Shown: piece after piece, positions 9,793 through 63,423 of the stretch
Layout: every line of letters begins with the position of its first letter
Position numbering within the stretch: the first letter of the stretch is position 1
DNA from: an uncultured bacterium
GTDB taxonomy: Bacteria; Macinerneyibacteriota; Macinerneyibacteria; Macinerneyibacteriales; DSCS01
DNA: 64,000 nucleotides
Reading direction: 5' to 3'
Assembly: GCA_964574875.1 (NCBI GenBank)
Contig: CAZNOX010000001.1
Coordinates: 149,335-213,334, forward strand
Made by a program: the position numbers and the translations under genes
The notes under the pieces: model-generated
Told to the model about the DNA's origin: nothing
The model's database searches: none
What the model saw: the letters and a program-made list of their open reading frames with translations, nothing else

Positions 9793-12417
9793 TTACGGGA
9801 TATTGTCCTGAATGAGGGTGAAGAGGTTTTTTAAATCGACAGGTTTCTGGAGAAATCCCACAGCCCCCCGCTCGAGTGTGCGGCTGATGCGCTCGTCTTT
9901 TCTGAATCCCGAAGCCAGAATGACTTTCACGTCAGGATTCATCTTTTTCATCTTGAGAAACGCTTCTTCTCCCGAAAGCCTGGGCATGAGCATATCCATG
10001 ATCACAAGTTTGATCTGCGCCCGTTCTTTCTGATAGAGCCTCACCGCCTCTTCTCCGTCGGAAGCCGTAAAGACCAGGAACCCGTGGAGCTCGATGATCT
10101 CTTTGAGAGTTTCCCGGATGATGGTCTCATCATCCACAAGGAGGATCCCCTCACCATGTCCGGCGACTCTCTCCGCCTCTTCCGGCGGCAGGGCTGTCCT
10201 GACATCGGGATGGTCCAGAAGGAGCGGGAGATAGAGGATAAAACGGGATCCCTTCCCTTTTTGAGATTCCACGGAAAGGAACCCGTTATGTCTCTTCACA
10301 ATACTGTCAGCCATGGCCAGCCCCAGGCCCGTTCCCTGATAACGCTGTTTTGTGGTGAAAAAGGGTTCGAAGATGTGCTCCGCTGTCTCCGGATCCATCC
10401 CTACGCCTGTATCTTCCACAGAGATCAGCGCCATGGGTTCCCCCTCTCTCCGTCCCTGCCTGGCGGCTTCTTCGCCATGCAGATGCACGGGTTCAGCTGT
10501 GAGTGTCAGGACTCCTCCCGGGGTCTCATTCTTCTCACGCATGATCGTCATGGCGTGTGAGGCATTGATACAGAGATTCAACAGGACCTGTTCAAGCTGC
10601 GTCTTGTCCCCTTCGATGATCACAGGGCCGGGATAAAGATCGGTATGGAAGGTGATGCTTTTATCCAGAGTGTTTTCACAGATCCTCACCACATTATGGA
10701 GAACGTCACTGAAATCCAGCTTCTCCTTGACAGGCTCCTTCTGCTGGGAGAGGGTCAGGAGCTCCTGGACGATGGACGAGGCCCGTTCAATGGCATTTTC
10801 GATGGTCTGGATATACTTGCGGATCTCCTTCTCATCCATGGGGATATCGTTTTCCCTTTTGAGTTTCATGATGGAAAGGGTTCCGGCGATCCCCCCGAGG
10901 ACATTATTGAAATCATGGGCCAGGCCTCCGGCCAGCTCCCCCAGGATCTCGATCTTCTGAATATTCTGGATCTGTTTGTCTTTTTCCTTCAACTCCGTGA
11001 TATCCGTCACAAAACCTTCGATGAACAGGGGACTGGGGCCTTTATAGATGGGACGCCCTTTTTCCCAGAGCCATCTGATGCTGCCGTCTTTATGATAGAT
11101 GCGGTAGACCAGTTCAAATGTGTTGTCCCTGGTCATGGAATCCCGGATCTGTTTATAGACCATAAGGCGGTCCTCTTCATGGATCAGATCGCCATACGCC
11201 TTGACCTTGTTCAGAAGCAGTTCATCAGCGTCATACCCTGTCAGCTCCCGGACGCCGTCGCTTAAAAAGACCATAGTCCAGTTTTCATCGTTGACACAGC
11301 GATAGGCCATGCCGGGAAGATTGGACAGGAGTGTGGACAGCATCCGTTCATTTTCGATGAGTGCAGCTTCCCTGCTGAGGACAGCATCCACCATGGTGGC
11401 AAAACTGTCTCTCAATTCATCGATCTCGGTATAAGAATCAGCCACTCTCACCTGACGGTACTCCCCTTTTGCTGCATTTTTCGCTGCTGCGCTCAGTTTC
11501 ATGATGGGCCGGACTGTCCTTTGAACGAAAAGGCTGCCCAGGAGAAAAGCCAGGAGGGTATAGACCACAAGCCCGATGAGAAAAGAGGGGAAAGCCCGAT
11601 AGAGGTCGGCGAAGGCCTCTTTGGTGTCCTGGATAAAAAAGATCGTCCATCCTCCCGGGGCCAGGTAGGACGCCGAGATGATCTTATCCCCTTCAGATGT
11701 GGAGACCACCCGTGTCCTCTGTTCCACAATAAGTTCAGGATGAGAGATCCCCAGTTCGGTGATGTTGGCCCGTTCCTGGACCACCCGGGTATCGGGATGA
11801 GCGATGAGCGTCCCCTTCCGGTCCATGATAAAAGCCATCCCCGTCTTTCCGATGGCCATCTTTGTGACGATCTGGTTCAGATAGGCTAAGTCGATGTAAG
11901 CGATGAGAGTCCTTTTGCCCATGGGCAGGATCACAGCCACAGAGGGATTTCCTGTCTTCCCGGAGATGAATGTATCCGACCATCTCAGCTGCCGGCTAGC
12001 TTCATCCTGTATGGTGACATAGGAGTGGCCCGACATGTCGTTTCCCAGCAGGTCCCTGTCAGGAGGATAGACCATCTCGATCTTGTTCCTCTCATCGACA
12101 ACGACGATCTGCTGGAGGATCGGGTCCTTGTCCAGGGTCATCTGCATATACTGTTCTGAGATTCGATCTCTCCGCCCGAAGGATGAGTCTTTCTCCCAGA
12201 GGTCACGGAGGATCTCCACAGGAGTCAGCATCTCATCCAGATAGCGCTGGATCTCTCCCCGGGCCAGATTGACGATGAGGATGTTTTTCTCGTAGACATC
12301 CCGGCGGATCTTGATCACGATCCCTGAATAGGTGACGATGACAATAAAAAGGATGGAGATGAGGCCCGCTATCATGAAGTAACGGACCAGGACGTTTTTA
12401 AGGCTGTTTTCCTTCAC
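9793..12417 (-). CDS. Hybrid sensor histidine kinase (dCache-HAMP-PAS-HisKA-HATPase-REC)
   Basis: Two TM helices flank a ~250-aa periplasmic Cache-like domain. A PAS domain follows. H-box LAHDFNNVL, N/G boxes, and a C-terminal receiver ILLVDDE...DMLMP. Confidence 0.85.
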   Translation of the reverse strand: MKENSLKNVLVRYFMIAGLISILFIVIVTYSGIVIKIRRDVYEKNILIVNLARGEIQRYLDEMLTPVEILRDLWEKDSSFGRRDRISEQYMQMTLDKDPILQQIVVVDERNKIEMVYPPDRDLLGNDMSGHSYVTIQDEASRQLRWSDTFISGKTGNPSVAVILPMGKRTLIAYIDLAYLNQIVTKMAIGKTGMAFIMDRKGTLIAHPDTRVVQERANITELGISHPELIVEQRTRVVSTSEGDKIISASYLAPGGWTIFFIQDTKEAFADLYRAFPSFLIGLVVYTLLAFLLGSLFVQRTVRPIMKLSAAAKNAAKGEYRQVRVADSYTEIDELRDSFATMVDAVLSREAALIENERMLSTLLSNLPGMAYRCVNDENWTMVFLSDGVRELTGYDADELLLNKVKAYGDLIHEEDRLMVYKQIRDSMTRDNTFELVYRIYHKDGSIRWLWEKGRPIYKGPSPLFIEGFVTDITELKEKDKQIQNIQKIEILGELAGGLAHDFNNVLGGIAGTLSIMKLKRENDIPMDEKEIRKYIQTIENAIERASSIVQELLTLSQQKEPVKEKLDFSDVLHNVVRICENTLDKSITFHTDLYPGPVIIEGDKTQLEQVLLNLCINASHAMTIMREKNETPGGVLTLTAEPVHLHGEEAARQGRREGEPMALISVEDTGVGMDPETAEHIFEPFFTTKQRYQGTGLGLAMADSIVKRHNGFLSVESQKGKGSRFILYLPLLLDHPDVRTALPPEEAERVAGHGEGILLVDDETIIRETLKEIIELHGFLVFTASDGEEAVRLYQKERAQIKLVIMDMLMPRLSGEEAFLKMKKMNPDVKVILASGFRKDERISRTLERGAVGFLQKPVDLKNLFTLIQDNIP

Positions 12418-13543
12418 TCTTCAAGGCTCCGATCGTCACAAAGGTCCCGTTTTTGACGACCACAAGTTTCTTTTCAGGAGAGGCATTGTAAAGAGGGTCT
12501 CCCTGAGGGGAAAAGGAGATGGTCCCCTGAAGCCCCTGAAAATCCTTTATCCGGACGATAGTCTCTTTAAGATGCTTCACATCAGAGTCGTCTGACAGGG
12601 CCTGCTGGAGCACCAGAAGAGCTTCGAATGCGCTGTGTGCAGCATAATCCGGACTTGAACGGTATCGCTCCTTGTAAAGTTCTCTGAACTTCAGATAAGC
12701 GGGATCAGTGTTGTCTTCGTCATAGTGCTGAAAAAAAATGACCCCTTCCCCTGATGTCCCTGCGTGGTAGATGAACTCCTTTGTCTTGGCCCAGATACAG
12801 GAGATGACAGGAAGATCCATCTTCATTTTTTCCATCTGCTGACAGATCAATGCGGCATCCAGCCCGTTGACGATGAGGACCACACAGTCCGGCTCTTCGA
12901 TTTCCAGCCCTCTGACCATGCTGTAATAGGAGACCTCATCACGGCTGTCGAATTTCATGGGGATCAGTGTGACTTCATGGTAGGATGTCAGGTCTTGCCG
13001 AAAGCTTTCATACCAGTTCAGCGTGTAACTGCTGTTGGACAGGTCGATAAAGGCCGCGATCCGTTTGGGTTTGATGCTTCTCATGATATAAGCGGCAATA
13101 TTACGCGTCTCATAACTGTTGGGAGGCTGGATACGGAAGAACCAGTCATCGACTCCGGTCAAAGCATCTGTGGTCGCCGAAGGGCTCATGAGCAGGATCT
13201 TTCTCTTCTCCGCTTCTTCCACGGCTGCCATGGCTGCTGTGCTGGTGAGAGGGCCGATTATGGCCGCGGCCCCTTCTGAACTCAGGTCTTTTACCGCCTG
13301 GACTGTCCTGTGGGGATCCATGCCGTTGTCTTTGATGATGATTTTGATCTCATGCCCGTCGATTCCTCCCCGTGAATTCAGAACATCCCGGGCCAGAAGA
13401 ATCCCGTTTTTTGCAGAGAGGCCGAGGTCCGAACCTTTCCCGGTGACACATCCGATGAATCCGATTCTCACCGGCTGTTTCTGACAGGCTGCAGTAAGAA
13501 GGATGATGACGATCAGTAACAGCTTTTGTGCTTTCGTTCCCAT
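12398..13543 (-). CDS. Periplasmic solute-binding lipoprotein, LivK/Peripla_BP_6 type (branched-chain amino-acid-like)
   Basis: Lipobox LLTAAC. GFIGCVTGKGSDLGLSAKNGILLARDVLN and the overall type-I PBP pattern. A GGAGG RBS precedes the ATG at 13543. The stop lies 20 nt inside the downstream kinase gene. Confidence 0.8.
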   Translation of the reverse strand: MGTKAQKLLLIVIILLTAACQKQPVRIGFIGCVTGKGSDLGLSAKNGILLARDVLNSRGGIDGHEIKIIIKDNGMDPHRTVQAVKDLSSEGAAAIIGPLTSTAAMAAVEEAEKRKILLMSPSATTDALTGVDDWFFRIQPPNSYETRNIAAYIMRSIKPKRIAAFIDLSNSSYTLNWYESFRQDLTSYHEVTLIPMKFDSRDEVSYYSMVRGLEIEEPDCVVLIVNGLDAALICQQMEKMKMDLPVISCIWAKTKEFIYHAGTSGEGVIFFQHYDEDNTDPAYLKFRELYKERYRSSPDYAAHSAFEALLVLQQALSDDSDVKHLKETIVRIKDFQGLQGTISFSPQGDPLYNASPEKKLVVVKNGTFVTIGALKSEGKQP

Positions 13544-13591
13544 GGAAACCTCCAAGCTAAGTTTACCATGAGTTGTCACTGCTGACAAGAG

Positions 13592-14695
13592 CTATCCTCT
13601 GAAGAGGCCTTTCATCTCAGGAGGGACTCTGCAGACGACAATCGCGTTCATTCCTTCATCCCCCTTCTCCGGCTGACGATAAAGATAAAAAACAAGATGC
13701 CCCTCATCCATCCCCACCACCGATAGGATAGAGACATGCTCAAACAAAGGATGAGTCAGGACAAGGGCCAGCGTTCCCCGGGCCGTATCAAAAACGTAAA
13801 GGGTCCCGCGGAAATCCTCCAGGGAGAACCTGTTTCCCTGTCTTCTTATCCGGAGTGAACACTCGGGAGCAGCCAGGACACCTTTGTGCAGAGCCATGGT
13901 CGAGATCACATGATCCCCCGCATTTGAGGTGAACCCCGGGCCGATGGCCCATTTCACAGGGACATACTCCTCCCTGTTTTCGACTCTGATCTCTTTAACC
14001 GTCTCAAGGTCTTCATTGAAAACCGTGATCCGGTAGGGGGCATTGATGTGTCCCGCGTAAAGAAGACCCTCTTTGTCTTTGACAAGAGAAACACCCGAAA
14101 AAGGATCCCCGTCCCGGGGAACATCATGATTTCCGTTGGAGACCGTCTTCTCCACAGTCATGGAACGGACATCATACTTCCCCACCAGGGTCTCTCTCAT
14201 CCCGCAATAATAGAGTGTCTCTCCTTCGAGTGTGAAATCAAGTATGGAATCAAGCCCTGACCGGGCATCCATTTGAAAACTGTCGGTAAAGGATCCGTCA
14301 AGGCTGAACATGTTCAGGCGTTTCATGAAAAAGTCGGGAATCATGATGGTCCTGTCCTGGATCCTCACACCCATGGCCTGCAGAAACTCTCCGGGTCCTT
14401 TCCCCCTGGGAAAAGTGACCGTATGGGTCCGGCCGGTTTCTGGATGGAAAAAGAAGAGCCTGAAAGAGTCTTCAAACTCCTGAAGGTAATAGACTTCACC
14501 TTCATAGAGGCCCATACACATGACCAGATTACTCCGGACGAAATCCCTCACCTCGAGGCGTGCGACCTCTTGAAGAGCAATCGTCTGCACCGAGTCATCC
14601 ATTCTGGAGACCACGGCCTCCTCTGAACTCCGGGCGCATCCTGAAAGAATGAGAAGAACCAGGGCTGCTGCCCCTGTCATGATCGAAGATCTCAT
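13592..14695 (-). CDS. Beta-propeller-like lipoprotein, GKGPGE-motif family, subfamily A
   Basis: Lipobox LILSGC. Motif FPRGKGPGEF. Clearly alignable with the 21046-22122 product. The start is chosen at MRSSIMTG. Confidence 0.6.
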   Translation of the reverse strand: MRSSIMTGAAALVLLILSGCARSSEEAVVSRMDDSVQTIALQEVARLEVRDFVRSNLVMCMGLYEGEVYYLQEFEDSFRLFFFHPETGRTHTVTFPRGKGPGEFLQAMGVRIQDRTIMIPDFFMKRLNMFSLDGSFTDSFQMDARSGLDSILDFTLEGETLYYCGMRETLVGKYDVRSMTVEKTVSNGNHDVPRDGDPFSGVSLVKDKEGLLYAGHINAPYRITVFNEDLETVKEIRVENREEYVPVKWAIGPGFTSNAGDHVISTMALHKGVLAAPECSLRIRRQGNRFSLEDFRGTLYVFDTARGTLALVLTHPLFEHVSILSVVGMDEGHLVFYLYRQPEKGDEGMNAIVVCRVPPEMKGLFRG

Positions 14696-14746
14696 CTTCC
14701 TCCTTTTTTTAATTATGACAAAGACAGGAGGAATAAGTTTCACGGA

Positions 14747-15649
14747 TCAGTAAAATTCTTTGATTTTTTGCAGGGGGAGAGGCCCGCGTATAAGCCTTCG
14801 CTCAGCATAAAGCCCTCCGTCATCCCGTGTGGAGACACGCCACAGGACAAGGGAGAGGCGGCCCTTCTCGATCTCTATTCCGGTGATCCCTGCCCTGTGG
14901 ACACCGTTGCCGGTATTGAAATAGGCTGTGGGGTCATGACCGGGCTCTGAAAAACGCGTCCTGTGGGTATGCCCCATGATGATGGCTCTCTTCCGGGACC
15001 GGGCCCAGCGGATGATCTTCCGCTCGATGATGCGTCTTTTTTTATATTCCTGGGCCGGGCTTGACGGGTTGTGAAACCCCATGGTCTGAAGATGGACCCA
15101 GAAATAACGGACAAAGAAGCGCCCCACTTTCCAGAGCCTGTCATTGAGCCAGTCCCCCTGATGCCCATGGACGAGAAAAAGCTCCGCTTCTCCCCCTTTA
15201 TAATCCAGCCGGAGTCCTTCATGGGCGTCCAGGCCGGTGAAGAGAGGGAGATACTTCCCGTTATAACTGTCGTAGAACCTGTGGAGGAAACGGCGCCGGA
15301 CCCCTTCGTCTTTTCTTTCCATGTCGTGGTTTCCGAAGATCAGAGACAAGCGTCCATGCTCATGCATTTTTATCATGATCTCGAATATCGTCTCATGAGC
15401 CTTATAGATATCCCAATAACGCTTGTTTTCCCACAACTCGTCGCCGTCACCCAGCTCGATGTAATGAAACCGGTGCTTGTCATAGTATTTTAAAGCATAC
15501 TCAAAGAGATGCCTGTTTTGTGAAAAATCATCATTCTTGTTGTCTCTCCCCCTGTGGAGGTCGGAAAAGAGGATCACCCTGCTCTTGTCAGTGATGGGGA
15601 GAGAAGGAGCTTTTTTGTAGACCTGGTCTAACCGCCCGGCGATGCTCAT
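14747..15649 (-). CDS. Calcineurin-like metallophosphoesterase
   Basis: Motifs LFSDLHRG, GDGDE, GNHD and GHTH(R) in canonical order. Confidence 0.8.
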   Translation of the reverse strand: MSIAGRLDQVYKKAPSLPITDKSRVILFSDLHRGRDNKNDDFSQNRHLFEYALKYYDKHRFHYIELGDGDELWENKRYWDIYKAHETIFEIMIKMHEHGRLSLIFGNHDMERKDEGVRRRFLHRFYDSYNGKYLPLFTGLDAHEGLRLDYKGGEAELFLVHGHQGDWLNDRLWKVGRFFVRYFWVHLQTMGFHNPSSPAQEYKKRRIIERKIIRWARSRKRAIIMGHTHRTRFSEPGHDPTAYFNTGNGVHRAGITGIEIEKGRLSLVLWRVSTRDDGGLYAERRLIRGPLPLQKIKEFY

Positions 15650-16184: not shown

Positions 16185-16192
16185 CGAGTCTC

Positions 16193-17329
16193 TTACCAGC
16201 CCGCTTTATAGACGGTATTGGCGCCTTCTCTCATGCGTCCTTCTTTGTCTGTCTGGAACGGAGCATAAAAATAGAGGCCGTCTTCCAAAGCCAGGAGAGA
16301 AAAGGAGAGAATGGTCTTCAAAAAAGGGTAACGGCGTCTTTCCAGAAAAACTCCCTTTTCGGCGTCAAAGACATCCACAAATCCGGTTTTTAACTCGGGT
16401 ATGGGTTTTCGTTCTCCTTTGATCGAGGCTCCGTCCCATTCATATTCAGCATAGCCCCCTGTCCCCCTCAGAACATAGACCTTTCCGCCCGCAGCGCAGA
16501 CCCCTTCCGTGGTTCTGGCCCCCTGCATCTGAAAACGTCTGTTGGGAAAGACGACAGGGGCGCTGCTCAGGATCTCCGTCCATCCGTCTTCGATGGTGTT
16601 GATCCAGACAAGCTTCAGGTCTTTGTCATATTTCCTGATCTCATAACGGTCTTTTCGGCCGTTGAAGACAAAAAAGAGGTTTCCCCGGTCATCTGTATCT
16701 TTGATCAGGAGATTCTTCGTCATGGCATCCTGCCCGTCCCGGGCATCACTGTCGATCTTTGCAACCATCTTCCCGTCTGTGCCGAGTTTCACCACCAGAG
16801 GCATCCGGACCGGCCCGATATAAAAAGCTCCATCAGCTGCATCGACGGATACACCGCCGTATGAAACAGAAAAAGAGAGGTCGGAGAAGAGGATGGAATC
16901 ATCATATTCACACTGGTCATTAAAGCATTCCATCCCGTTTTTCTGAAAGTCAAGGATATAGATCTTCCCGTTCCCCACGGACAATGACGCCGGCCACTGC
17001 ACTTCTCCGGGGCCTTTTCCCGATATCAGAGGTTTTTCTGTGAGGAGAGTCATCTCCCGGTTGAAAAGAGAGATCATGACCGTCTTCCCGTCTGTCTGCG
17101 TCAGGGCGGCCAAACGTTGATCTTTATCCGCATCGGCATGCCAAAGTAATAATCTCTTGTCCGGGTCCAAGGGAAATGCAGCGAGAAGAGCCGCTTCATG
17201 CCCGCAATCTTTATCGATCCGTGTGGTGATGAGGCTGACCCCCTCTTTTCTTTCGATCTTCGTGACAGGTGATGAACAGGCTCCCAGTATCATGATCATG
17301 ATTGCAGCATAAAACGCTCTTTTTCTCAT
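16193..17329 (-). CDS. Beta-propeller-like lipoprotein, GKGPGE-motif family, subfamily B
   Basis: Lipobox ILGAC. ISGKGPGEV. Paralog of the 57353-58531 product. AGGAGG RBS before the ATG at 17329. Confidence 0.6.
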   Translation of the reverse strand: MRKRAFYAAIMIMILGACSSPVTKIERKEGVSLITTRIDKDCGHEAALLAAFPLDPDKRLLLWHADADKDQRLAALTQTDGKTVMISLFNREMTLLTEKPLISGKGPGEVQWPASLSVGNGKIYILDFQKNGMECFNDQCEYDDSILFSDLSFSVSYGGVSVDAADGAFYIGPVRMPLVVKLGTDGKMVAKIDSDARDGQDAMTKNLLIKDTDDRGNLFFVFNGRKDRYEIRKYDKDLKLVWINTIEDGWTEILSSAPVVFPNRRFQMQGARTTEGVCAAGGKVYVLRGTGGYAEYEWDGASIKGERKPIPELKTGFVDVFDAEKGVFLERRRYPFLKTILSFSLLALEDGLYFYAPFQTDKEGRMREGANTVYKAGW

Positions 17330-17453
17330 CAGTCCTCCTTTGTGAAAAAGACAGGAAAGCGAAACTTTTTGTTTCACCGGCGTGTATAGTGAAGAGATCC
17401 TCTTGTCTTTTCTTCATAAAGAGGCTATTTTCATTCAAGCAAAGGAGTTTTTG

Positions 17454-18850: not shown

Positions 18851-18866
18851 TATCGGCTCTGTCCGT

Positions 18867-21045: not shown

Positions 21046-22122
21046 CTATTCCGTATCAAAGACAAACAGAGTGCGAGAGGATCTTTTCTCTGAATCTGGC
21101 CACAAAGTCTTCGTGGCTGTCCCGTAATCGACCACAAGAGAGAAGAGTTTCCCCTCTTCGATATCCACGAGGACGTTATCCCCCTGGATCTCCTGAGGGC
21201 CGGATGGCCTGATCTGCCTGACATAAGCCCCTGTCTTCATATCGTAGACATCAAAATAGTAGTCCATGACCCGGTAACGCCACTCTTTATCAAAGTCCTG
21301 GCCGTTGGGATTGGCCACATAGAGGAAGCGTCCGTCATTGCGCATGGACGAGATCAGGTAACACCCCACAGTCCCGTCAGTGATTTCATTGCGGAAATAC
21401 TCCGGAGAGGGGTATTTTTCAAGCCCTTGTCGTGTAAAAGTCATGATCTTTTCGAGCCGCTTGTCATACTTCTCGATACGGTAGGGCTGGCCGTAATATC
21501 CCAGGAAGACATCCCCTGTGGCTTGATCCACAGACAGGGTCCCTCCCGGGAGGACTCCCCCCTCATACCTCTTTTCAAAAGGAAGAGAGAGGACCTCGCC
21601 TGTCTCTCTGTCCACACGGGAGAGTTTGAACCGGATGGTCCCGGCAAAATAAAAGGCCTCATCCGTGACTTCGAACGACCAGGGGTTCCCGATCTCATCG
21701 GTGAGGGCAAATTCATCCAGATAGGCCCCCTGAAGATCATAGATGTTCACCCGGCGCATGAGCAGATCACAAAAATAGATGCGGCTGTCATGGATCCGGA
21801 TACCCAGATTGTGCATGACTTCCCCGGGGCCCTTTCCCCTGTTCAGTGTGATGTTCTCTTCCTTTCCTGTGTCGATCTCTTTCACGTGGATGATGTACCG
21901 GTCAGGGCGTCTCTCCAGATAGTAGAGCCTTCCCTGAAAGACAGCGGCAGAATAGAAGAGATTATTGGTGGCCACTTCCGTGGTATCCAGCATCCTTCTG
22001 AATGCCACAGTGCGCACTCCCTCCATGGGCCTCTCGTTCTTCTGAATCACCTCTCCCTGCGGGGCACATCCCCACACCAGGGAAAGGAGGACAAGGTAAA
22101 GACAAGTTACGATCTGTTTCAT
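21046..22122 (-). CDS. Beta-propeller-like lipoprotein, GKGPGE-motif family, subfamily A
   Basis: Lipobox VWGCA. NRGKGPGEV. Alignable with the 13592-14695 product. Confidence 0.6.
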   Translation of the reverse strand: MKQIVTCLYLVLLSLVWGCAPQGEVIQKNERPMEGVRTVAFRRMLDTTEVATNNLFYSAAVFQGRLYYLERRPDRYIIHVKEIDTGKEENITLNRGKGPGEVMHNLGIRIHDSRIYFCDLLMRRVNIYDLQGAYLDEFALTDEIGNPWSFEVTDEAFYFAGTIRFKLSRVDRETGEVLSLPFEKRYEGGVLPGGTLSVDQATGDVFLGYYGQPYRIEKYDKRLEKIMTFTRQGLEKYPSPEYFRNEITDGTVGCYLISSMRNDGRFLYVANPNGQDFDKEWRYRVMDYYFDVYDMKTGAYVRQIRPSGPQEIQGDNVLVDIEEGKLFSLVVDYGTATKTLWPDSEKRSSRTLFVFDTE

Positions 22123-22261
22123 CAGAAAACCTCCGTTTACTTCATAGGACACATCTTCAATCCTGAAGTTTCAGGAGAACCGGGAGACTTTCCTTCGATA
22201 TCTCCCGCAACGATGTCTTTTGTGCTATACTGTCTCATACGTCAATAAGAAAGGAGTCAAA

Positions 22262-53830: not shown

Positions 53831-54304
53831 TCAGGCCGAAAGAGAAGCGGGACTCCCCGCGTTCACATTGACGGCCAATAACGGTGTTTCAAAAAGATGT
53901 TTCGCAAAGGAGATGTTCAGGGCTTCGTGCCGGCCTGCCAGGGCGACCTCGCGGTATCCGGCCACAGTCTCAGCAAAGAGAAAGACATTATCAAGCCTGA
54001 ATGTACGCCCGAGAACACGCAGGTCGGCATAATCACTCTTTAACAGGGGGAGAAACCGTCTGACATAATCGGTCACCCGGGAATCCTTTTCGAGATGAAG
54101 CATGATCATCAAATAAGCTTCACGACCCGGCTCTTCTCCTGCAGAGATCCACTTCCGGGTCCGAAGCTGATCACGGTAAAACCACATGGGGCACGGATCG
54201 ACCTTGTAAAAAAGAGGTGAGTCTCCCCATTCGCCGGTCAGGGCAAAATCCCAGGGGCCTGTTTGATTCATGAGCAGTCTTGTGTCCGGAAGAGCTCCTT
54301 TCAT
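53831..54304 (-). CDS. Hypothetical 157-aa protein
   Basis: The ATG overlaps the stop of the upstream small ORF (ATGA). Confidence 0.45.
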   Translation of the reverse strand: MKGALPDTRLLMNQTGPWDFALTGEWGDSPLFYKVDPCPMWFYRDQLRTRKWISAGEEPGREAYLMIMLHLEKDSRVTDYVRRFLPLLKSDYADLRVLGRTFRLDNVFLFAETVAGYREVALAGRHEALNISFAKHLFETPLLAVNVNAGSPASLSA

Positions 54305-54438: not shown

Positions 54439-54635
54439 GATATCTCCTTTCTGTCCTCATCATACGTCCCTTCTGAGTTTCTGTATAGAGAGCAGTTTTC
54501 TTTCGTATATGTTCCCTTATAAGCATATATCTGGTTAATTTATTGAGACTTATGAGTTTTTATGGTTTTTAGAGGTTCCCACTTTATGAACTGATGAATC
54601 CGGGCGGAGACGATTCCTCCGCCCGTAAGAAGGCC

Positions 54636-55940
54636 TTATTTCCCTGAGATGGTGATCCCCTCAGTCAGGACCCAGGGGATACGGCTGTGCCCTGAATCAT
54701 TGGTCTCCCGGGAGACCGCCGTGATATTCTGAAACAGGTCCTTGATGTTTCCGCTGATCATGGTTTCACTCAGCCCCTGCTTGATTTCTCCGTTTTCGAT
54801 GAGAAAACTGTTTTTTGCCACTCCTGAAAAATCACCGTTTTCTCCGGGGTTCCCGCCTGAAAACCGGGTGAGGAGGAGTCCTTTCTTCACACGCCCGATC
54901 ATGGCGTCCAGAGAATCATCCCCCGGTTCAAGGACATAGAAATAGCCGTTATTGGCCGCCCTGTCCAGGTTGCATTTCACCGCACCGTATTGGCTCAACA
55001 GGTAGCTTTTCAAAACCCCCTTCTCGATAAGAGTCAGGTTTTCTGCGGGGAAACCGTCGTGAGTGATGGCATAACCTCCCGCCATGGACGGATCCAGGGG
55101 AAGAGACCTCAATGTGACCAGAGGAGAAGCGACGCCTTTTCCCAACGAATCTTTCAGAAATGAGGTCCTGGTGATCATGGCCCGGTCACTCAGATGCGAC
55201 GAAAGAAACATGATGAAGTCCATCAGGCATTCGGGCGTCACGATGATCTGCCCCACGCATTTCCCGGGAAAAGGTTTTGTCTCAATAAGGAAGGGTGCTT
55301 CTCCGATGAGCCTGTCCACTCCTCCGATATCAAAAAGAGGCCGCGAAAGGTCATTCATGGTGACATTGACATAGTTGAATGAAGAGCTTTTTGCCTCTCT
55401 TTTTGCTGAAAACATCACTGTGAACTCGTAAAAACCTCTTTCATGGTAGAGATCGGCGCTGTTGCTGTTTTTATAATGCCGGGTGAGGACTTTATAGTCC
55501 AGAATAGCTTGTTCCAGGATAACTTCAGGGTATTTCTGGCGGACATCTGCTGTGAACTCTTTCAGCCGCTCATACATACGGTCAGCATCGGGCTCGTCTC
55601 CTGAGAGCTCCGTTTTCATGATATTGTGCCCTGAAATGTCGTAAGCGGGGTCCTTCTCCGACGAAAGGGCGATATCGTATGTCTCCTGAACGGTCTCTCT
55701 GATCGAGGCTTCATCGGTCCTGTTGGTGGTCATGGTCCCTTTTCTGGCATCTTTGATGACGGTGAGTGTGAGCTCAGTATTGAATATGGTCCTGAAAAGG
55801 CTGATCTCCCCGCCGTCCACATTCAGTTCATGTGTTTTGGAGTGGGAGAGGTCGCAGGCCGTTTTTTCGGCTCCGGTCTCTTTCAGGGAGGAACAGCTTT
55901 TCTTCAGGATCTCCAGGCTTTTGTCATAGGACATCATCAT
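54636..55940 (-). CDS. pmbA: PmbA/TldE-family metalloprotease partner
   Basis: TldD/PmbA-family fold without HExxxH, as expected for PmbA. The start overlaps the stop of the upstream tldD. Confidence 0.75.
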   Translation of the reverse strand: MMMSYDKSLEILKKSCSSLKETGAEKTACDLSHSKTHELNVDGGEISLFRTIFNTELTLTVIKDARKGTMTTNRTDEASIRETVQETYDIALSSEKDPAYDISGHNIMKTELSGDEPDADRMYERLKEFTADVRQKYPEVILEQAILDYKVLTRHYKNSNSADLYHERGFYEFTVMFSAKREAKSSSFNYVNVTMNDLSRPLFDIGGVDRLIGEAPFLIETKPFPGKCVGQIIVTPECLMDFIMFLSSHLSDRAMITRTSFLKDSLGKGVASPLVTLRSLPLDPSMAGGYAITHDGFPAENLTLIEKGVLKSYLLSQYGAVKCNLDRAANNGYFYVLEPGDDSLDAMIGRVKKGLLLTRFSGGNPGENGDFSGVAKNSFLIENGEIKQGLSETMISGNIKDLFQNITAVSRETNDSGHSRIPWVLTEGITISGK

Positions 55941-55941
55941 C

Positions 55942-57363
55942 TTACTTCCCTCCTATGTTGACTCTGCATTTGACAGCAGGACCACCCATCCCCACAGGAA
56001 TAGCCTGTTTTTTCCCGCACATCCCGGCGCAGCTCCAGGACATCTCGTCGGAGACCATGCTCACTGTCCTGAGCATATCAAAAGCGACCCCGGAGATCGT
56101 GGTGTTCTTCAGGGCTTTTCCGAGTTTTCCGTTTATGATCTCGTACCCCATGACGACACCGAACATAAACTCGCTCGTGGTGTCCGCCTGTCCGTTACTG
56201 GCCCTGGCCAGATAATATCCATGGTCGATCGAGGCGATCATATCCCCGAGTCTGTCCTTTCCGGGAAGGATCGCTGTATTTCTCATACGGATAAGAGGCT
56301 CATCGCTATACTCCGATGCCCTGGCATTCCCTGTGGGTGCAAAACCGAAATGAAGAGCTGTCTCTTTATTAAAGAGATAACTCTTCAGAACTCCTTTTTC
56401 GATAATGGCGACATCTTCTCCTTCGGTTCCTTCATCGTCCACATAGACAGGGACCGGACACGGCTTCCCCAGGGCTGTATGAGCAAAATCGGTGAGTGAG
56501 ACAAGGGGGCTCGCCACCTCTTTATTCAGGTAGTCCCCCGCCACGGACCCGCCCAGGACAATATCAGCTTCCGTGGTATGCCCGATGGCTTCATGGGCCA
56601 GGATCCCGGCAAGGTCGGCATCCATGATCACATCATGCTCTCCTGCTTCGGGATAGATCCCTTCGGATTTCGCTTTGAGTTTGACGTACAACTTATCAAG
56701 ACGCTCGTAAAAGTCTTCGGCAATGCCGAAATGATCCTCGTATTGTCCAAACCCTCCGTAGACATCATAGAGATCCACAGGGCCGTCACCTTTATCCAAA
56801 GTCAGGGAAATCACGAGAAGGGCCCGCGGGATCATGGAATAGGCCCGGGATCCTTCAGACGTCAACAGGGCTTTCTCCATATCAAGATTGGCCATGGTGA
56901 CGCTGCGGGCACTGATATCGGGATAGCTTTTTTTCAAATATCCGTCGATCTCGCGCAAAAAACCTGTTATCTCTTTTGGAGCCGCCTTCCCCTGAATCGT
57001 GGAGAAATCGTGATATCCCCGGGCACTGCCGTAGGCCAGGGGCATGGCATTCCTGTTCTCCCTGCTGTCCAGAAACTGAGCATTGCGGGTTGCGGCGCGG
57101 ATGACAGCCCTGACATCTTCATGAGCCGTCTCAGGGCTGGCGGAAAATCCCCAGACTCCGCCTGCATAGACACGCGCAGAGATCCCGCTGATACGGTTGC
57201 GTGTATTGGCAACGATATCCCCGTTGAGGAGTGAGATCCTCAGATTGCTGTTTTTCTGATACCGAAGCTCGGTATATTCACTGAAATCGTCACGAAACCC
57301 ATCAAGATATTCCAGGTTCAAAATACCCTCCTTTTTTGCACTCTCATTATAATCACCGGGCAT
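55942..57363 (-). CDS. tldD: TldD-family zinc metalloprotease
   Basis: HEAIGH zinc motif and the GxC C-terminal region. The ATG at 57363 is preceded by AGGGGA. The start overlaps the upstream lipoprotein gene by 11 nt. Confidence 0.75.
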   Translation of the reverse strand: MPGDYNESAKKEGILNLEYLDGFRDDFSEYTELRYQKNSNLRISLLNGDIVANTRNRISGISARVYAGGVWGFSASPETAHEDVRAVIRAATRNAQFLDSRENRNAMPLAYGSARGYHDFSTIQGKAAPKEITGFLREIDGYLKKSYPDISARSVTMANLDMEKALLTSEGSRAYSMIPRALLVISLTLDKGDGPVDLYDVYGGFGQYEDHFGIAEDFYERLDKLYVKLKAKSEGIYPEAGEHDVIMDADLAGILAHEAIGHTTEADIVLGGSVAGDYLNKEVASPLVSLTDFAHTALGKPCPVPVYVDDEGTEGEDVAIIEKGVLKSYLFNKETALHFGFAPTGNARASEYSDEPLIRMRNTAILPGKDRLGDMIASIDHGYYLARASNGQADTTSEFMFGVVMGYEIINGKLGKALKNTTISGVAFDMLRTVSMVSDEMSWSCAGMCGKKQAIPVGMGGPAVKCRVNIGGK

Positions 57364-58531
57364 TCCCCTGTAAAGCGGGAATCTCCTCAAGAGGTTCCAG
57401 GCCTGTGGTGTAGATATAATCGCTGGTCTCTTTCTCTTTTCCCGTCTCTTTATCGATCTCTGATGTCGCGACAAAGACAAAGCGGTCATCAAAGGGGTAG
57501 AGGCGGTAATCCTGGTGGGGCTCGAGAAACTCAGCATCCACTCTTGCAAGATGCTTCAATGTCCCGGTATCGAAAATATCGACAAATCCTTTTTTTAACC
57601 CGGGAATGGGCAGGCCGTAGTAGACCTTTTTCCCGTCCTCCCATTTCACATCATTGATCCCGGCGACTCCACGCAGGACATAGAGCTTTCCCCCTTTGAC
57701 ACAGAGAGATGTGGCTGAAGCTCCCCCGTTGGCTTCAAATGAACCGTCGGGGAAACGGCAGATCTCCAGAGAGAGCAGGTCATTCAGGCCGTCGTCATTA
57801 AAGGCGGTTTTCACAAGATTCATCCCGGAATCATACTTTCTGATCTCATAGGATCCTTTGAGCCCCAGCATAACGGCATAGACGTTTCCCGAAGGATCCA
57901 CCGTATAACGGACGAGGTTTTCAAACATCTTCTGCACATCGAGTTCCGTCTCTGTACTGATGCGCGCAAGAGCATTGAACTGGGCGTCTGTCTTCACCAC
58001 AGACCCCGGATAGGTCATCCCGATATAGTAGTTCTCTCCGAAGTGCGTCACCACACAATTTCCGAAGGAGAGGCTGTAGGAGGCGTCCTGGATGGGGACA
58101 GAATCTTCAAATCGTCCGTCATAAGCGAACATCTCCATGGAGTTTTTCTGACGGTCGATAAAAGTGATCACTTGTCCGTCCATTCCCATTCCCGGAATCC
58201 AGCTTCCCAGCTCTCCGGGCCCTTTCCCGGATGGAAGCGTAAAAGCTCCCGTCTGTTCGAGCTCTTTATTGAAAAGAACGACTTTTCGTGTTTGATCTTC
58301 AGGGTGCACGACCACGGCAAGCCGGTCCTTCCCGTCTGATTCGTGAAGATAAAAATCGATATTCCCTTCGTCCACGCGGACCGTCTTGATCAGGGGCAGA
58401 CGTCCGTCGGGTTTAAGCGCGATCTTGTTATGGATCACTTTCTCTTCTTTTTCAGAAGAGCAGCTCATGAGTGCAGTGAGGAGAAGAAGAGGAAGAAGGG
58501 AAAGAGAAGAGATCTTTATCAGCATAGACAA
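57353..58531 (-). CDS. Beta-propeller-like lipoprotein, GKGPGE-motif family, subfamily B
   Basis: Lipobox LMSCS. LPSGKGPGEL. Alignable with the 16193-17329 product (CVKGGKLYVLRG vs CAAGGKVYVLRG). Confidence 0.6.
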   Translation of the reverse strand: MSMLIKISSLSLLPLLLLTALMSCSSEKEEKVIHNKIALKPDGRLPLIKTVRVDEGNIDFYLHESDGKDRLAVVVHPEDQTRKVVLFNKELEQTGAFTLPSGKGPGELGSWIPGMGMDGQVITFIDRQKNSMEMFAYDGRFEDSVPIQDASYSLSFGNCVVTHFGENYYIGMTYPGSVVKTDAQFNALARISTETELDVQKMFENLVRYTVDPSGNVYAVMLGLKGSYEIRKYDSGMNLVKTAFNDDGLNDLLSLEICRFPDGSFEANGGASATSLCVKGGKLYVLRGVAGINDVKWEDGKKVYYGLPIPGLKKGFVDIFDTGTLKHLARVDAEFLEPHQDYRLYPFDDRFVFVATSEIDKETGKEKETSDYIYTTGLEPLEEIPALQGNAR

Positions 58532-58619
58532 GCTCCTTTCGTATCAGGTTTTTTTTCGTAATCCGTTATCATAGGACAACGTGAACGCAGGAGTTGTTTC
58601 AGGAAGTGATTCGTCTCAG

Positions 58620-59549
58620 TTATTTGGCATACATGGTCAAAAAGCGCATGACATCCTGGACAAAATCATACTTTTTTTCAGCAAAGGGATAATGCCCGGC
58701 GTCATTGTAGATGATAAAGATCGAATTGGGAATCAGGTCGTGAAGAGCCATGGGGCTGGCTTCTCCCACAGGATCCTTCTCTCCGTGGATGATCAGGACA
58801 GGAGAATGGAGTGACTCCAGGCGAGGTGTGATGTCATACGACGCCAGAAAGGGATGCAACGCCGACATCACGGAAAACATCTTATGAATACGGTCTCTGT
58901 CCAGTCCTAAATCGATCTCCTGAGCTTTATTCCCGTCACCCATGGACATTTTAAAAAAACAGGTCAGGACATAGGAGACGGCCTGCGGATCCTCTTTTTC
59001 AAACTCCCCGCTCTTCATGATCTCTTTAAACCGGGCCTGCTCTTCGAATGAAAGACGGGAAAAATCATTGTGGGCAGGAAGGAGAGAGGATTTCGTGGGA
59101 GCAGCACTCACAAGAACGAGAGCTCCGCAATGATCAGGATAGCGTTTGGCATACTCCAGGGCGAGGAGAGCCCCGAATGAATGCCCCAGAAGATTGATAC
59201 GCTCCAGCTTCAGTTCTTTCCTGACAATGTCAATATCATCGACGAGAGCATCAAAAGTGATTTCTGAAGTCTCTCCCCCCTTTGATGCTCCGCACCCGCG
59301 CTGGTCGAAAAAGATGAGTTTGAATTTTTGAGTTAAAAAAGAGAGGTAAGGCTCCAGATAGTGGAATCCGAATCCCGGCCCTCCATGAAGGACCACAACA
59401 GGAAGCCCTTTTCCCGCTTCTTGATAAAAGAGAGAGGCCTCTCCGTTTTCGATGTATCCTTCTTTAGGCTGTGTGGATAGACAGGAAATAAAAAGGAACA
59501 GGGCCGCCATTCCGGCAATCAAAACAATAAGAACCCACAGCTTCTTCAT
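58620..59549 (-). CDS. Alpha/beta-hydrolase lipoprotein, prolyl aminopeptidase-like (S33)
   Basis: HGGPG oxyanion motif and GHSFG nucleophile elbow. AGGAGG RBS before the ATG at 59549. Lipobox-like FISC. Confidence 0.7.
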   Translation of the reverse strand: MKKLWVLIVLIAGMAALFLFISCLSTQPKEGYIENGEASLFYQEAGKGLPVVVLHGGPGFGFHYLEPYLSFLTQKFKLIFFDQRGCGASKGGETSEITFDALVDDIDIVRKELKLERINLLGHSFGALLALEYAKRYPDHCGALVLVSAAPTKSSLLPAHNDFSRLSFEEQARFKEIMKSGEFEKEDPQAVSYVLTCFFKMSMGDGNKAQEIDLGLDRDRIHKMFSVMSALHPFLASYDITPRLESLHSPVLIIHGEKDPVGEASPMALHDLIPNSIFIIYNDAGHYPFAEKKYDFVQDVMRFLTMYAK

Positions 59550-59660
59550 CGATCCTCCTGTCATGCTCTTTAGAATATACAGAAGCCGTGATAATTATCA
59601 AGACAAAAAAAGGGAGAGAGTGGAACCCTCTCTCCCCCCACCGGTAATAATAAGGCCTGT

Positions 59661-60233
59661 TTACTCTTCGTTGTCTTTCTTCTGCTCTTTCAGCATCTCT
59701 TTCTTCTGTTCCTCGAGTTTCAACTGTTCCTGAAGCTTTTTCTGCTCCTGGAGCTTCTTCTGCTCCTTCAGCTGAGCTTCATCAGAGACACCGTCCTTCT
59801 TCTGCTCTTTTGCCTGGATCTGTTTGGCCTCTTCCGACACACCCGGGTCGTTATTCTGGTTCAGGGCTTTATTGGCTTCCATGTTTTTAAGCTGTGTCTC
59901 CTCGCCCTTATTCTGATTGGCTTCCTTATTCAGCTCTTTTTCCTTCTCCCCTTCTCCGGACTGGTCTTTTGTCTGGACAGCCTCTCCGTTGACCTCTTTT
60001 TCCTGTTCCTTGTTTTGAGTCTCTCCGTTGTTTTTATTCGCATTGATCTCTTTTTCTTTTTCCAGAAGTTCTTTCTGCTCCTGGATCATGGTCTTCACCT
60101 TTTTCTTCTCAACAGTCCCTTTTCCGCTTCCGGCTGCCCCTGTGGTCCCCTGAGCTCCTGCAGGGCCTCCTTTGGCCAGGATCAGCCCGAAACCGGCCAT
60201 GACACATAAAAGTAACAGAACAGATCTTTTCAT
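59661..60233 (-). CDS. Secreted Lys/Glu-rich low-complexity repeat protein
   Basis: Signal peptide. Repeated EQKKLQEQ/KEKE tracts. AAGGAGG RBS. Confidence 0.5.
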   Translation of the reverse strand: MKRSVLLLLCVMAGFGLILAKGGPAGAQGTTGAAGSGKGTVEKKKVKTMIQEQKELLEKEKEINANKNNGETQNKEQEKEVNGEAVQTKDQSGEGEKEKELNKEANQNKGEETQLKNMEANKALNQNNDPGVSEEAKQIQAKEQKKDGVSDEAQLKEQKKLQEQKKLQEQLKLEEQKKEMLKEQKKDNEE

Positions 60234-60285: not shown

Positions 60286-63200
60286 TCAGTTCACTGTGAT
60301 GACTTTCGTCAGGGCTTCTCCCCCGACGTCTTTGACCTGTTTTTCATTTCCGTAGACGCTGTATATCCCCTGCTGGATCATCTTCCGGAAAAGAGGGGCA
60401 TAGGAGCGGATCTTTTCCGGCGTCGTAGAGAGGACTTCTCGTCTTATCCTGTTGATCTCCTGTAGGTCTCCGCCTGTGAGGACCTTTTTAAAATAGTATC
60501 GGCCGCGGCTGAGAGGAGCATTGGAGAGATCCAGGTTCGCTATGGTCCCGATGAGGTAGAGTTCCATCTCTTTTTCTGAAGGTTCAAACCCGTCGAGAAA
60601 GTCAACGGCCTTCTCAAAGACCTGGAGAGTCTCCCTGATATGAGGATCCCTGAAGGAATACATGAGCATGGTCCTGTCGGGAAAGACTGACATCCCGCCT
60701 CCGTATGCTCCGCCCCGGACGCGCAGGGCCTGCCAGAGATAGACATTCCTCACAATGTTCGATGCAGCCAGAAGTGAACCGCTGTAGAGGATACCTTCTT
60801 TATCCAGATCGGCCACCTGGGCCACGAAATTGACACGTGACGGCGAAGCGAAGCCCTCCCGAAGAGTGATCTCAGCCATTCGGGGAGAACGTGGCGGTTC
60901 TGTGGCTCCTGGCCTGAAAAGAGGAAGTCCGGAGAGGATCTTTTCTGTTGCTGCCATCCCCTCCCCCATGAGGTCCGTATCGGTGACCAGGCCCGCTGTC
61001 ACCCTGTTTCCGGCAAAGATGTATTCATATGTTTTTTTCAGCTCTTTTCGGACAGCAGAAGGGTCTTTTTGAAAATCACGGTTCACCCTGTTGATAAAGA
61101 GGCTGTAGTCATATCCTGAGGTGATCTCATCAAAGACAAAGGGCCCGCCCATGGCGCTGTTTGCACGGGAGATGGCGATGTCAAGGCCATCATTGATCAT
61201 CTTTCTTTCCATGCGGGCTTTTTCGTTGGCCAGAAGAGTCGCCAGGCGCTGCTCTGCATTGAAATCCGTTCTCTTCAGAATGAGCTTCAGAAGTCTCACA
61301 GCCTCATCAGCTTCTCTTGACAAGGCCCGCAGAGAGACCACGGCGTAAACCTTCCAGCGGTGGGTGTCCTGCTCATCTGTCATGCGCGAGATGTCAAAGG
61401 AAAGCCCGCCGAGATGGCTGTTGACTTCCATGGAAAGCTTTTCATCATCATAAGGGCCTGCCCCGAGCTGTCCCAGGAAACGGGACAGAAGCACAGCCTT
61501 CTGGAGCTCCTCTTGATCCAGGTCAGAGATATCAAAATAAAGGTCCCAATAAAAGATCCCGTTGGTATTGTCAGTATAGATCATGACGGGACGCCCGGAA
61601 AGATGGCGGACTTCCCCCACGGGAACGGTGATATCCGGTTCGATATCGGCAAGATCCAGGAGAGGGACGGTGGCCAGGGCTTCAGGGGTGTCAGGAGTTT
61701 CCTGATACTCCTTGAGTTCCCTGTTCATGGCGATGATCCGTGACAGGTCAGCTTCGGAGAGAGATTCTCTGATCCTCTCCAGTTTTTCCTTTTCCTCTTG
61801 TCGAAGACGTTCTGTCATCCCGGGGTCGGGAATCATGGTGATGGAAGCGGCATGCTGATTATTGACAAATTGATTGTTCAGGATCCTCTTCCATATCACC
61901 CGGTCTTTTCTGAGATGAGCCAGCTTCTCTTCAAAAGCAAGCCCCTCCAGCGGATCCCCGAAGGTGATCCAGGATGCAGTCGCCTGAAACATCAGGGAAA
62001 GCCCCCTGGGGAAACGTCCTGAAGCGGGTTCCCGGAGACGAAACTCCAGCTTGTTGAGAAGAGATTCCAGAAGTGAGGGATCCAGCCCTTTTTCTGCGAG
62101 ATCGCTGAGCACACGGGTGACAGTCTCTGTAAACTCTGTCTGCCGTTCTCTGTCCCCCCCCGCAGCGACAAAACTCATGACCGGAGGGGTCGTCCGGGAG
62201 AGCCATCCGTAGACCAGGGTTCCGAAACCCTTCTCTTCCAAGGCCTTTTTCAGCGGAGAGGCGGGACTTCCCATGAGATACTCTTCCAGGACTCCCAGCG
62301 CCATCACCTCTTCAGGAGTGGTGATGGCGTTCAGGACAAAGTGAACAGAGAGATAATCGCGAGGTTCGGAACCGCCCTTTCCTGCAGGATAAGGAAAGGT
62401 GACGCTTTTTCTTTCTTGAAACGGTTTCTGTCCTTCCTGCCCTGCGCCTGCAGGCCTTTTTTCAAATGCGGATAGATATTCTCTGTCGATAAAGGCCAGC
62501 TCTTCGGCTGTATCAAGATTCCCATAGAGGTAGATATAGGCATTAGACGGGTGGTAATAGGCCGAGTGAAAGGCGACAAATTCGTCCTGGGTGAGATCAG
62601 GGATGAACCGGGGATCTCCTCCTGAATTTCTGGCATAGACCGTATCAGGAAGGAGGGTCTCATCGATGGCGTAGTTCAATGCCCTGTCCGGAGAAGACAT
62701 GGCTCCCTTCATCTCATTGAAGACGATTCCGTTGTAGTGCAGGGTCTGTGTCTCGGGATCATATTCATACCGCCATCCCTCCTGTCTGAGGATCCTCTCG
62801 TCGTTGAGAAGAGCAGGATGAAAGACTCCGTCCAGATAGACACTCATCAGGTTGTAAAAATCTTTCTTGTTTTGACTTGCAATGGGATACATGGTCCGGT
62901 CAGCTCCGGTCATGGCGTTGAGAAAGGTCCTCAGAGACCCTTTCCTCATGATATCGAAGGGGCTTTTGACAGGGAATCGTTCCGAACCGCAGAGGACAGA
63001 GTGTTCCATAATATGAGCCACCCCTGTATCGTCTTGCGGAAGAGTCCGAAAAGTGATACTGAAGACATTATTGGAATCATCGTTTTCCAGCTTGATGAGA
63101 CGGGCACCGCTCTTGATATGCTCAAAAACAAGGGCCGTCACTTTTATTTCGGACAGGGTCTCTTTCCGGAGAAGCCGGAATCCTGAGTAGGTTTTTCCCG

Positions 63201-63297: not shown

Positions 63298-63397
63298 GAT
63301 GCGACCTCCATTTTTATTCTTATACGGATTACGAAAGATTTTGTTTCGTTTTCAGGAATATTTTATCGGACTTTTTCAGGAAAATAAAGAAAAAAAA

Positions 63398-63420
63398 AGC
63401 GGCCCCGAAGAGCCGCTTTT
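63398..63420 (-). terminator. Rho-independent terminator (AGCGGC-loop-GCCGCT followed by T8 on the minus strand)
   Basis: On the plus strand it reads A8 + hairpin. It lies directly downstream of the minus-strand gene ending at 63424. Confidence 0.65.
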
Positions 63421-63423
63421 CAC

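Follow-up and report, generated by a model that had tools for sequence, protein, structure and literature searches.

A 64,000-nucleotide (nt) stretch of the genome of an uncultured bacterium of the Macinerneyibacteriota (contig CAZNOX010000001.1; referred to below, at its full length, as the window) carries on its minus strand a gene for a propeller lipoprotein followed closely by tldD and pmbA (tldE), raising the question as to whether these three genes constitute a single operon. A sequence-only reading of the locus had proposed that they do, with overlapping codons coupling the translation of all three and the products forming a dedicated complex for the capture and processing of peptides. 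We conclude instead, with a probability of roughly 60%, that there are two adjacent units, and that any link between the lipoprotein and TldD is at the level of the pathway only. The first unit would consist of the gene for an exported, lipid-anchored propeller protein located downstream of a gene for an S33 lipoprotein hydrolase, and the second of a canonical tldD-pmbA bicistron with its own promoter (57374-57346), Shine-Dalgarno sequence and start codon (TTG 57321). The three-gene coupled operon is refuted by the comparative data, because the start codon on which it depends is not conserved, and the promoter and Shine-Dalgarno sequence of tldD are.

Start sites, junctions and promoter

Three co-directional minus-strand open reading frames (ORFs) are present in the ORF list where the sequence-only reading had placed them. 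They are arranged head to tail, with maximal extents of 57353..58531 (392 amino acids; aa), 55942..57549 (535 aa) and 54636..55940 (434 aa). The genes assigned to them, and the elements at the junction of the first two, are as follows.

57353..58525 (-): lipoprotein gene, 390 aa; exported product with a predicted six-bladed NHL-like beta-propeller, member of a small GKGPGE family
55942..57321 (-): tldD, catalytic subunit of an M103 metalloprotease, 459 aa counted from the conserved TTG
54636..55940 (-): pmbA (tldE), non-catalytic partner subunit, 434 aa
57353..57388 (-): C-terminal extension of the lipoprotein, EEIPALQGNAR (11 codons) plus stop, from the junction and protein alignments
57346..57374 (-): promoter-like site of the sigma-70 type (TTTACA-17 nt-TATAAT) immediately ahead of tldD, matching 11/12 consensus positions
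57327..57333 (-): Shine-Dalgarno sequence AAGGAGG of tldD, 5 nt ahead of TTG 57321, 14 codons downstream of ATG 57363

The reported 11-nt overlap between the lipoprotein gene and tldD requires that tldD start at ATG 57363, which is in frame with it and has a poor Shine-Dalgarno sequence, AGGGGA, directly before it. Alignment of this junction in the window and nine related loci (n=10; TldD identities of 78-98.6%) shows that ATG 57363 is unique to the window; eight of the relatives have AAG or AAA at this position, and the ninth (L091, the most divergent of the loci) has unrelated sequence. The closest relative, L085, has a TldD that is 98.6% identical and a lipoprotein that is 95% identical, yet it too has AAG there. 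The sequence AAAAGGAGG and the TTG at 57321, with 5-6 nt between them, are invariant in all ten loci, the gene-caller product for the L001 TldD is the same 459 aa that this TTG gives, and TldDs of other phyla that are 60-61% identical (L006 and L009) align to the 459-aa protein from residue 1. We have therefore rejected ATG 57363, which is not conserved, in favor of TTG 57321 with its conserved Shine-Dalgarno sequence; the overlap is an artefact of the start codon chosen.

The end of the lipoprotein gene is also unusual in the window. Its stop codon, TGA 57355-57353, lies 31 nt ahead of the tldD start, as it does in L085, whereas the lipoprotein ORFs of the other eight relatives end (with TAG, TAA or TGA) about 33 nt farther upstream, leaving 63-66 nt between stop and TTG. 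At the position of the stop (TAG or TAA) of most relatives the window reads GAG (57388-57386), so that its lipoprotein acquires an 11-residue tail, EEIPALQGNAR, which is found only here and in P0001/L085 and overlies DNA that is intergenic, and carries the promoter-like site, in the other loci. The tail has values below 50 for the predicted local distance difference test (pLDDT) in the AlphaFold2 model described below. At the other end of the gene, comparison with relatives places the start at ATG 58525, which is preceded by conserved GAAAGGAG; this favors it over a TTG at 58531, which was rejected.

The promoter-like site upstream of tldD is the best promoter match within the 10.5 kb scanned. 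Its TATAAT is kept in all ten aligned loci and its TTTACA in nine of them, suggesting from both consensus and conservation that tldD has its own near-consensus promoter. Sites with at least 11/12 consensus positions number three on both strands of the whole window, against 0.27 expected from first-order Markov simulations. The other two lie together at 35700-35856 and point apart, one being TTGACA-17-TATAAT (12/12, plus strand) and the other TTTACA-16-TATAAT (11/12, minus strand).

The tldD/pmbA junction is of a different kind. It reads GGAGGGAAG-TAA-G-ATG, with the tldD stop at 55944-55942 and the pmbA start at 55940, so that the overlap that had been described here is in fact a 1-nt spacer; judged by locus coordinates, this 1-nt gap recurs in relatives or is replaced there by a small overlap. 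A GGAGG sits inside the 3' end of tldD, 8 nt ahead of the pmbA ATG. Translational coupling is plausible for this arrangement, and among the three genes tldD and pmbA would be the only ones coupled in this way. Just past pmbA there is a possible end to the transcription unit:

54602..54624 (-): G+C-rich hairpin, 12 nt past the pmbA stop, without a U-tract

Its folding energy is -20.5 kcal/mol (z = -2.76 relative to shuffles), and although the terminator scan left it unflagged it may mark the end of the unit. An apparent split or frameshifted gene farther downstream was rejected, since the 157-aa ORF at 53831..54304 begins at an internal Met common to relatives.

Several features of the locus are those that coupling of all three genes would lead one to expect: all three genes run in one direction and lie close together, a start at ATG 57363 would give 11 nt of overlap with the lipoprotein stop, gene callers took overlapping upstream tldD starts in L004 and L085, and synteny is conserved inside the lineage. 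Nonetheless, the codon in question is missing from all nine relatives, eight of which have the longer spacer with its conserved -10 and Shine-Dalgarno sequences, and tldD and pmbA do not overlap in the window. A conserved promoter and ribosome-binding sequence thus separate the lipoprotein gene from tldD, and we regard three-gene coupling, along with the dedicated complex that goes with it, as very improbable.

Protein families and predicted compartments

The identities given to the three genes by the sequence-only reading are correct: the catalytic motif is present in the TldD and missing from the PmbA, and the third product is a propeller lipoprotein. The motifs concerned are the following.

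56578..56595 (-): HEAIGH zinc-binding motif of TldD, read from the sequence; opposite HEAVGH in the alignment with 5nj5_A
58460..58525 (-): signal peptide and lipobox of the lipoprotein (MLIKISSLSLLPLLLLTALMS-C22), read from the sequence; hydrophobic N-terminus, Kyte-Doolittle 2.18
58211..58228 (-): GKGPGE family motif of the lipoprotein, residues 100-105, from alignments A2 and A3

TldD passes the cut-offs of all three Pfam domains of the family (PmbA_TldD 1st, PF01523, 46 bits; 2nd, PF19290, 28 bits; 3rd, PF19289, 165 bits) and aligns with E. coli TldD (5nj5_A; phmmer E 2e-41), with its C-terminal GMCGK opposite GVCGK and the GxCGK cysteine, the third metal ligand, retained. PmbA matches the 1st and 3rd domains (PF01523 and PF19289) and the solved PmbA/TldE structures 1vpb, 3qtd and 5nj5_B, and HExxxH is absent from its translation. 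Neither protein reaches an NCBIfam equivalog cut-off. In tests against the bacterial (PRK10735) and archaeal (NF040952) TldD models the archaeal-type model is the best match, at 254.6 bits against a cut-off of 635, the second scoring 144.3 against 513; for PmbA the best model is PmbA itself, at 90.6 bits against 438. By these scores TldD belongs to the TldD family as the equivalog of neither model.

Compared with E. coli TldD/TldE (PmbA; MEROPS M103, PDB 5nj5), the window pair has the same domain architecture, with HExxxH and GxCGK in TldD and a partner likewise without the motif, but it is distant in sequence, and its best NCBIfam model is the archaeal-type one. The genes form a tight pair here, and pmbA directly follows tldD in every high-identity TldD locus whose contig extends far enough, whereas E. 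coli has the two genes at separate places on its chromosome. From its domains and motifs we take the pair to be a divergent, catalytically complete M103 member.

TldD/E is a soluble cytoplasmic heterodimer (PMC5810440), and the TldD/TldE protease threads unfolded peptides (PMC5810440, PMC10885120). Because the domains, the metal motifs, the motif-free partner and the tight gene pair match E. coli TldD/TldE, the window pair is expected, by analogy, to act as a cytoplasmic protease of this kind, and the heterodimeric zinc protease would trim or degrade unfolded peptides. Neither a signal peptide nor a transmembrane-like segment for export was found in TldD or PmbA by N-terminal hydrophobicity.

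The lipoprotein belongs elsewhere. Its N-terminus is a lipoprotein signal peptide, with the lipobox LMS-C22 following the hydrophobic core, and lipidation is predicted; Cys22 and GKGPGE are invariant in a nine-sequence alignment (A2; 9/9) and at least 90% conserved in an alignment of 22 family members (A3). Hydrophobic N-termini are also present in three products encoded upstream, the S33 hydrolase, a Lys/Glu-rich protein and an M16C peptidase. The suggestion that the lipoprotein is a dedicated peptide-capture partner therefore does not hold up well: with the lipoprotein exported and TldD/PmbA without signal peptides, a complex between them would have to span the membrane, and a dedicated physical partnership is unlikely. 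It is easier to envisage that the lipoprotein binds protein or peptide outside the membrane and that TldD/PmbA degrade or process peptides in the cytoplasm, with no physical complex between them. This separation of an exported lipoprotein from a cytoplasmic protease is a further argument against the coupled operon.

As to what the lipoprotein is, an AlphaFold2 model made from the shallow nine-sequence alignment is all-beta (pLDDT 79.7; predicted template modelling score, pTM, 0.82), and the predicted fold is an NHL-like six-bladed beta-propeller. Neither Pfam nor NCBIfam has a model that matches the protein, even at E<=10, and the 22 family members have no usable match in either database, there being marginal single matches only. 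A word-indexed search of 5.8 billion proteins gave 8 homologues; when 1.84 billion cluster representatives were searched with a profile, 15 clusters came out at E<=1e-30, and behind them weak matches, of which many had several matched stretches; tblastn against a plasmid collection found no match. The protein resembles the propeller lipoproteins of Bacteroidota and others (DUF5128, PF17170; TolB_like, PF15869; DUF4221, 3s9j) and NHL repeats in its size of ~370-390 aa, its lipoprotein N-terminus and its occurrence in multi-paralogue clusters, but differs in that none of the propeller models of Pfam or NCBIfam matches it or 21 of the 22 family members. The lipoprotein does not reach the DUF5128/TolB_like cut-off, and one of the 22 members gives a marginal match. 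The lipoprotein is a new relative, without a database model, of the six-bladed propeller lipoproteins that DUF5128, TolB_like and DUF4221 represent.

Three GKGPGE paralogues are also encoded in the window, at 16193..17377 (32% identity, E 2e-50), 13592..14743 and 21046..22152. The second of these reaches the DUF5128 cut-off of 22.9 bits (31.0) and the third just misses it (22.8); the lipoprotein is tied to DUF5128 only transitively, via paralogue 13592..14743 (BLASTP 9e-8 to the lipoprotein). This paralogue lies between a metallophosphatase-like gene (14747..15649) and a gene for a periplasmic binding protein (12398..13588), and the order lipoprotein, metallophosphatase, binding protein in the 12398-22152 region is echoed in L106.

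Distribution of the gene neighbourhood

The sequence-only reading had offered conservation of the neighbourhood as its check, and here the outcome is divided. A scan for TldD with one genome per species returned 80 loci, of which L005 is the best match (89% identity); its source is a metagenome-assembled genome that bears the title Candidatus Mcinerneyibacteriota. Next come matches of 51-62%, from genomes under titles such as Cloacimonadota, Spirochaetota, Fermentibacteraceae, Neomarinimicrobiota and Clostridia. L005 is the only one of the 80 with the lipoprotein; searching all ORFs with the A3 profile, we found no member of the family in the other 79 loci, including those of the 51-62% relatives, and the upstream neighbours there are unrelated and often divergently transcribed. 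The pairing is thus absent beside the nearest TldDs outside the lineage, which counts further against the coupled operon.

Within the lineage, the order S33 hydrolase-lipoprotein-TldD-PmbA is kept in all close relatives (lipoprotein identities of 64-95%) where the contig allows, that is in L001, L004, L005 and L085-L091, with the fragment L094 consistent, and the M16C gene and a low-complexity gene also precede the block where relatives' contigs reach further upstream. The order therefore stands throughout the sampled loci of one lineage and fails in the 79 other TldD loci. As part of a peptidase-rich island, the neighbourhood is kept in one lineage only and is specific to it.

The converse question is what the lipoprotein family adjoins. 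We sampled neighbourhoods of ten subfamilies, of which nine have readable downstream context, and TldD/E adjoins two of these nine, the remaining seven being without it. The contexts beyond that of the window gene and its close relatives are:

16193-type paralogue (window, L092, L093, L095): TldD not found in the flanks examined
P0013 (L106): metallophosphatase, then periplasmic binding protein
P0006 (L002): paralogue cluster, without TldD
P0016 (L103): paralogue cluster, without TldD
P0011 (L097): without TldD
P0008 (L100): RecR, on the opposite strand
P0014 (L101): behind a radical SAM/SPASM protein, whose C-terminal end it overlaps by 4 nt; secreted protein downstream
P0018 (L107): after a lipoprotein S9/DLH-like hydrolase; contig ends next
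P0019 (L096, L099): TldD and TldE downstream

The last of these warrants a closer examination. L096 (positions 1-10410 of the 25% G+C metagenome contig Ga0209947_1001664) encodes a lipoprotein that is 23% identical to that of the window, upstream of a TldD with HEAFGH and a TldE. The full order is a LytTR regulator, three precursor-like ORFs, a radical SAM/SPASM maturase, YcaO, an ATP-binding cassette (ABC) exporter, a GKGPGD propeller lipoprotein, TldD and TldE. The tandem precursor-like ORFs (495-626, 651-764 and 789-923) encode products of 36-44 aa with a common MEMEVIKNSK leader and Cys-bearing C-termini. In L099, whose lipoprotein is 84% identical to that of L096, the order ABC exporter, lipoprotein, TldD is kept. 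L096 and L099 look like an undescribed cluster of the type that makes RiPPs (peptides synthesized by ribosomes and then modified post-translationally). In L101 (3-1423) and also in L102, P0014 overlaps by 4 nt the end of a gene whose product has a SPASM-type Cys motif (CEHCTYLPLCWGGCP) at its C-terminus, which is a second link of the lipoprotein family to radical SAM/SPASM peptide maturases.

These contexts raise the alternative that GKGPGE lipoproteins and TldD/TldE form a recurrent functional module that handles a specific, possibly modified, exported peptide, with the lipoprotein as what might be an extracytoplasmic immunity, binding or receptor component and the window trio as a minimal or remnant version of an L096-type cluster. 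TldD-type proteases act as leader peptidases in RiPP pathways, for example that of microcin B17, and TldD/E-type enzymes are sometimes cluster-encoded (PMC10885120, PMC12707348). Other RiPP systems that encode or use such proteases are klebsazolicin, the ammosamide cluster and biphenomycin (BipI). In line with the leader-peptidase role, the TldD/TldE of L096 are encoded in one cluster with the lipoprotein, precursor-like ORFs, maturase, YcaO and exporter; L099 retains exporter, lipoprotein and TldD, P0014 directly follows a radical SAM/SPASM C-terminus, and members of the window lineage keep the three genes together even where their lipoproteins are only 64% identical. The window differs from such systems in that a RiPP cluster was considered and rejected there, neither precursor nor maturase genes being found near the protease: tblastn with the L096 proteins found no radical SAM or YcaO homologue in the 64 kb, and Pfam scans found no maturase genes among the larger ORFs tested, small ORFs not having been systematically screened. 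Moreover, the clade to which the window TldD belongs (51-62% identity) is without the lipoprotein elsewhere, the TldD of L096 shares only 25-26% identity with that of the window, 435 nt separate lipoprotein gene and tldD in L096, and the pairing occurs in only two of nine subfamilies. We consider a recurrent module unlikely as the explanation of the window locus. Somewhat more doubtful still is the broader proposition that GKGPGE propeller lipoproteins are a recurrent extracytoplasmic accessory (immunity, binding, receptor) of TldD/TldE-dependent peptide systems.

There are nonetheless points that weigh against our preferred reading of two adjacent units. The stretch from the lipoprotein gene to tldD contains no terminator, and read-through co-transcription is therefore possible; the activity of the tldD promoter is predicted from consensus and conservation, and the consensus used is of the sigma-70 type, which may not be the host's; a distant family member occurs again upstream of TldD/TldE, in L096 and L099; and, taking a frequency of about one tldD per 2,000-3,000 genes, rough arithmetic gives P ~0.003-0.01 for a second TldD adjacency by chance among eight further subfamilies. 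Since this recurrence is unlikely by chance, a link more specific than a shared island is possible. Even so, the natural reading of L096, by analogy, would still be at the level of a pathway, with a cytoplasmic leader peptidase, an exporter and an extracytoplasmic lipoprotein.

A peptidase-rich setting and its interpretation

In the two-unit reading the lipoprotein gene is better grouped with its upstream neighbour than with tldD:

58620..59564 (-): S33 alpha/beta-hydrolase gene, proline iminopeptidase-like, with its own signal peptide and lipobox; upstream neighbour of the lipoprotein gene

Ahead of this gene come a strong terminator (59639..59609) and then a promoter-like site (59601..59574). 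The 94-nt spacer between it and the lipoprotein gene (58526-58619) contains blocks conserved in nine loci, TGAAACA(A/T)C and TTGTC, with ACGGATTACGA following TTGTC in eight of the nine; these could serve as promoter, operator or leader element.

The grouping can be taken further, to the proposal that the extracytoplasmic hydrolase is the true partner of the lipoprotein, the two lipoproteins making up a pair at the surface or in the periplasm, one binding substrate and the other hydrolysing it, and that TldD/PmbA are unrelated neighbours. A signal peptide and lipobox of its own are found in the hydrolase too, and it precedes the lipoprotein, syntenically, in every relative whose contig reaches that far, and the terminator and promoter-like site bracket the start of the pair. 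Elsewhere in the family, an S9/DLH-type lipoprotein alpha/beta-hydrolase directly precedes P0018 in an unrelated 29% G+C lineage (L107, 1735-3931, and also L108), and in L097 (11271-13553) a DLH/S9-like gene lies ~430 nt downstream of a paralogue. These neighbours echo the window's S33 and lipoprotein pair at the fold level only, however, with the L107 and L097 proteins giving BLASTP E >=0.15 against that of the window; because alpha/beta-hydrolases are common, chance adjacency is much likelier for them than for TldD, and the conserved blocks of the 94-nt spacer could be a separate promoter or operator. Such a partnership with the hydrolase is accordingly a doubtful prospect.

The wider setting is rich in peptidases. 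The island has the order M16, secreted M16C/PreP-like peptidase, secreted Lys/Glu-rich protein, S33 lipoprotein, propeller lipoprotein, TldD/PmbA. The region 60286-63996 encodes the M16C/PreP-like peptidase, a secreted protein of 1003 aa, and a further M16 fragment at the window edge. Between the M16C and S33 genes, at 59661-60233, is a gene for a secreted 190-aa Lys/Glu/Gln-rich low-complexity protein without a family match, which is 80-89% identical among relatives and has the strong terminator 59639-59609 downstream. A Tricorn-type protease with PD40, Tricorn_C1, PDZ and S41 domains is encoded at 23137-26367. It is because of this concentration of peptidases (M16, M16C/PreP-like, S33, TldD/PmbA and Tricorn) that we read the locus as a lineage-specific proteolysis island, in which the two adjacent units would be linked at the level of the pathway.

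Literature covering DUF5128, RiPP/SPASM and gene-neighbourhood topics yielded no propeller lipoprotein paired with TldD/E, and literature on the candidate phylum name contained nothing about this locus; a propeller lipoprotein likewise goes unmentioned in PMC10885120 and PMC12707348. The sole novel element, and a weak one, is the association of the lipoprotein family with TldD/E in two lineages.

The locus is mainly a correction, in that tldD-pmbA is an ordinary, separately promoted pair whose apparent overlap with the lipoprotein gene came from an unconserved start codon. What it adds is the definition of a very small family of NHL-like propeller lipoproteins for which there is no database model, and whose members adjoin peptide-processing genes (TldD/E, radical SAM/SPASM and secreted alpha/beta-hydrolases) in several unrelated lineages. 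If the lipoproteins were indeed accessories of TldD/TldE-dependent systems, the module would be present in the L096 RiPP cluster and, without maturases, here, and the window trio would mark an unrecognised peptide-handling pathway. Were the association to prove general, it would offer an initial clue to what this lipoprotein family does, perhaps extending to the related DUF5128-type proteins, and would suggest a new accessory of TldD/E peptide maturation.

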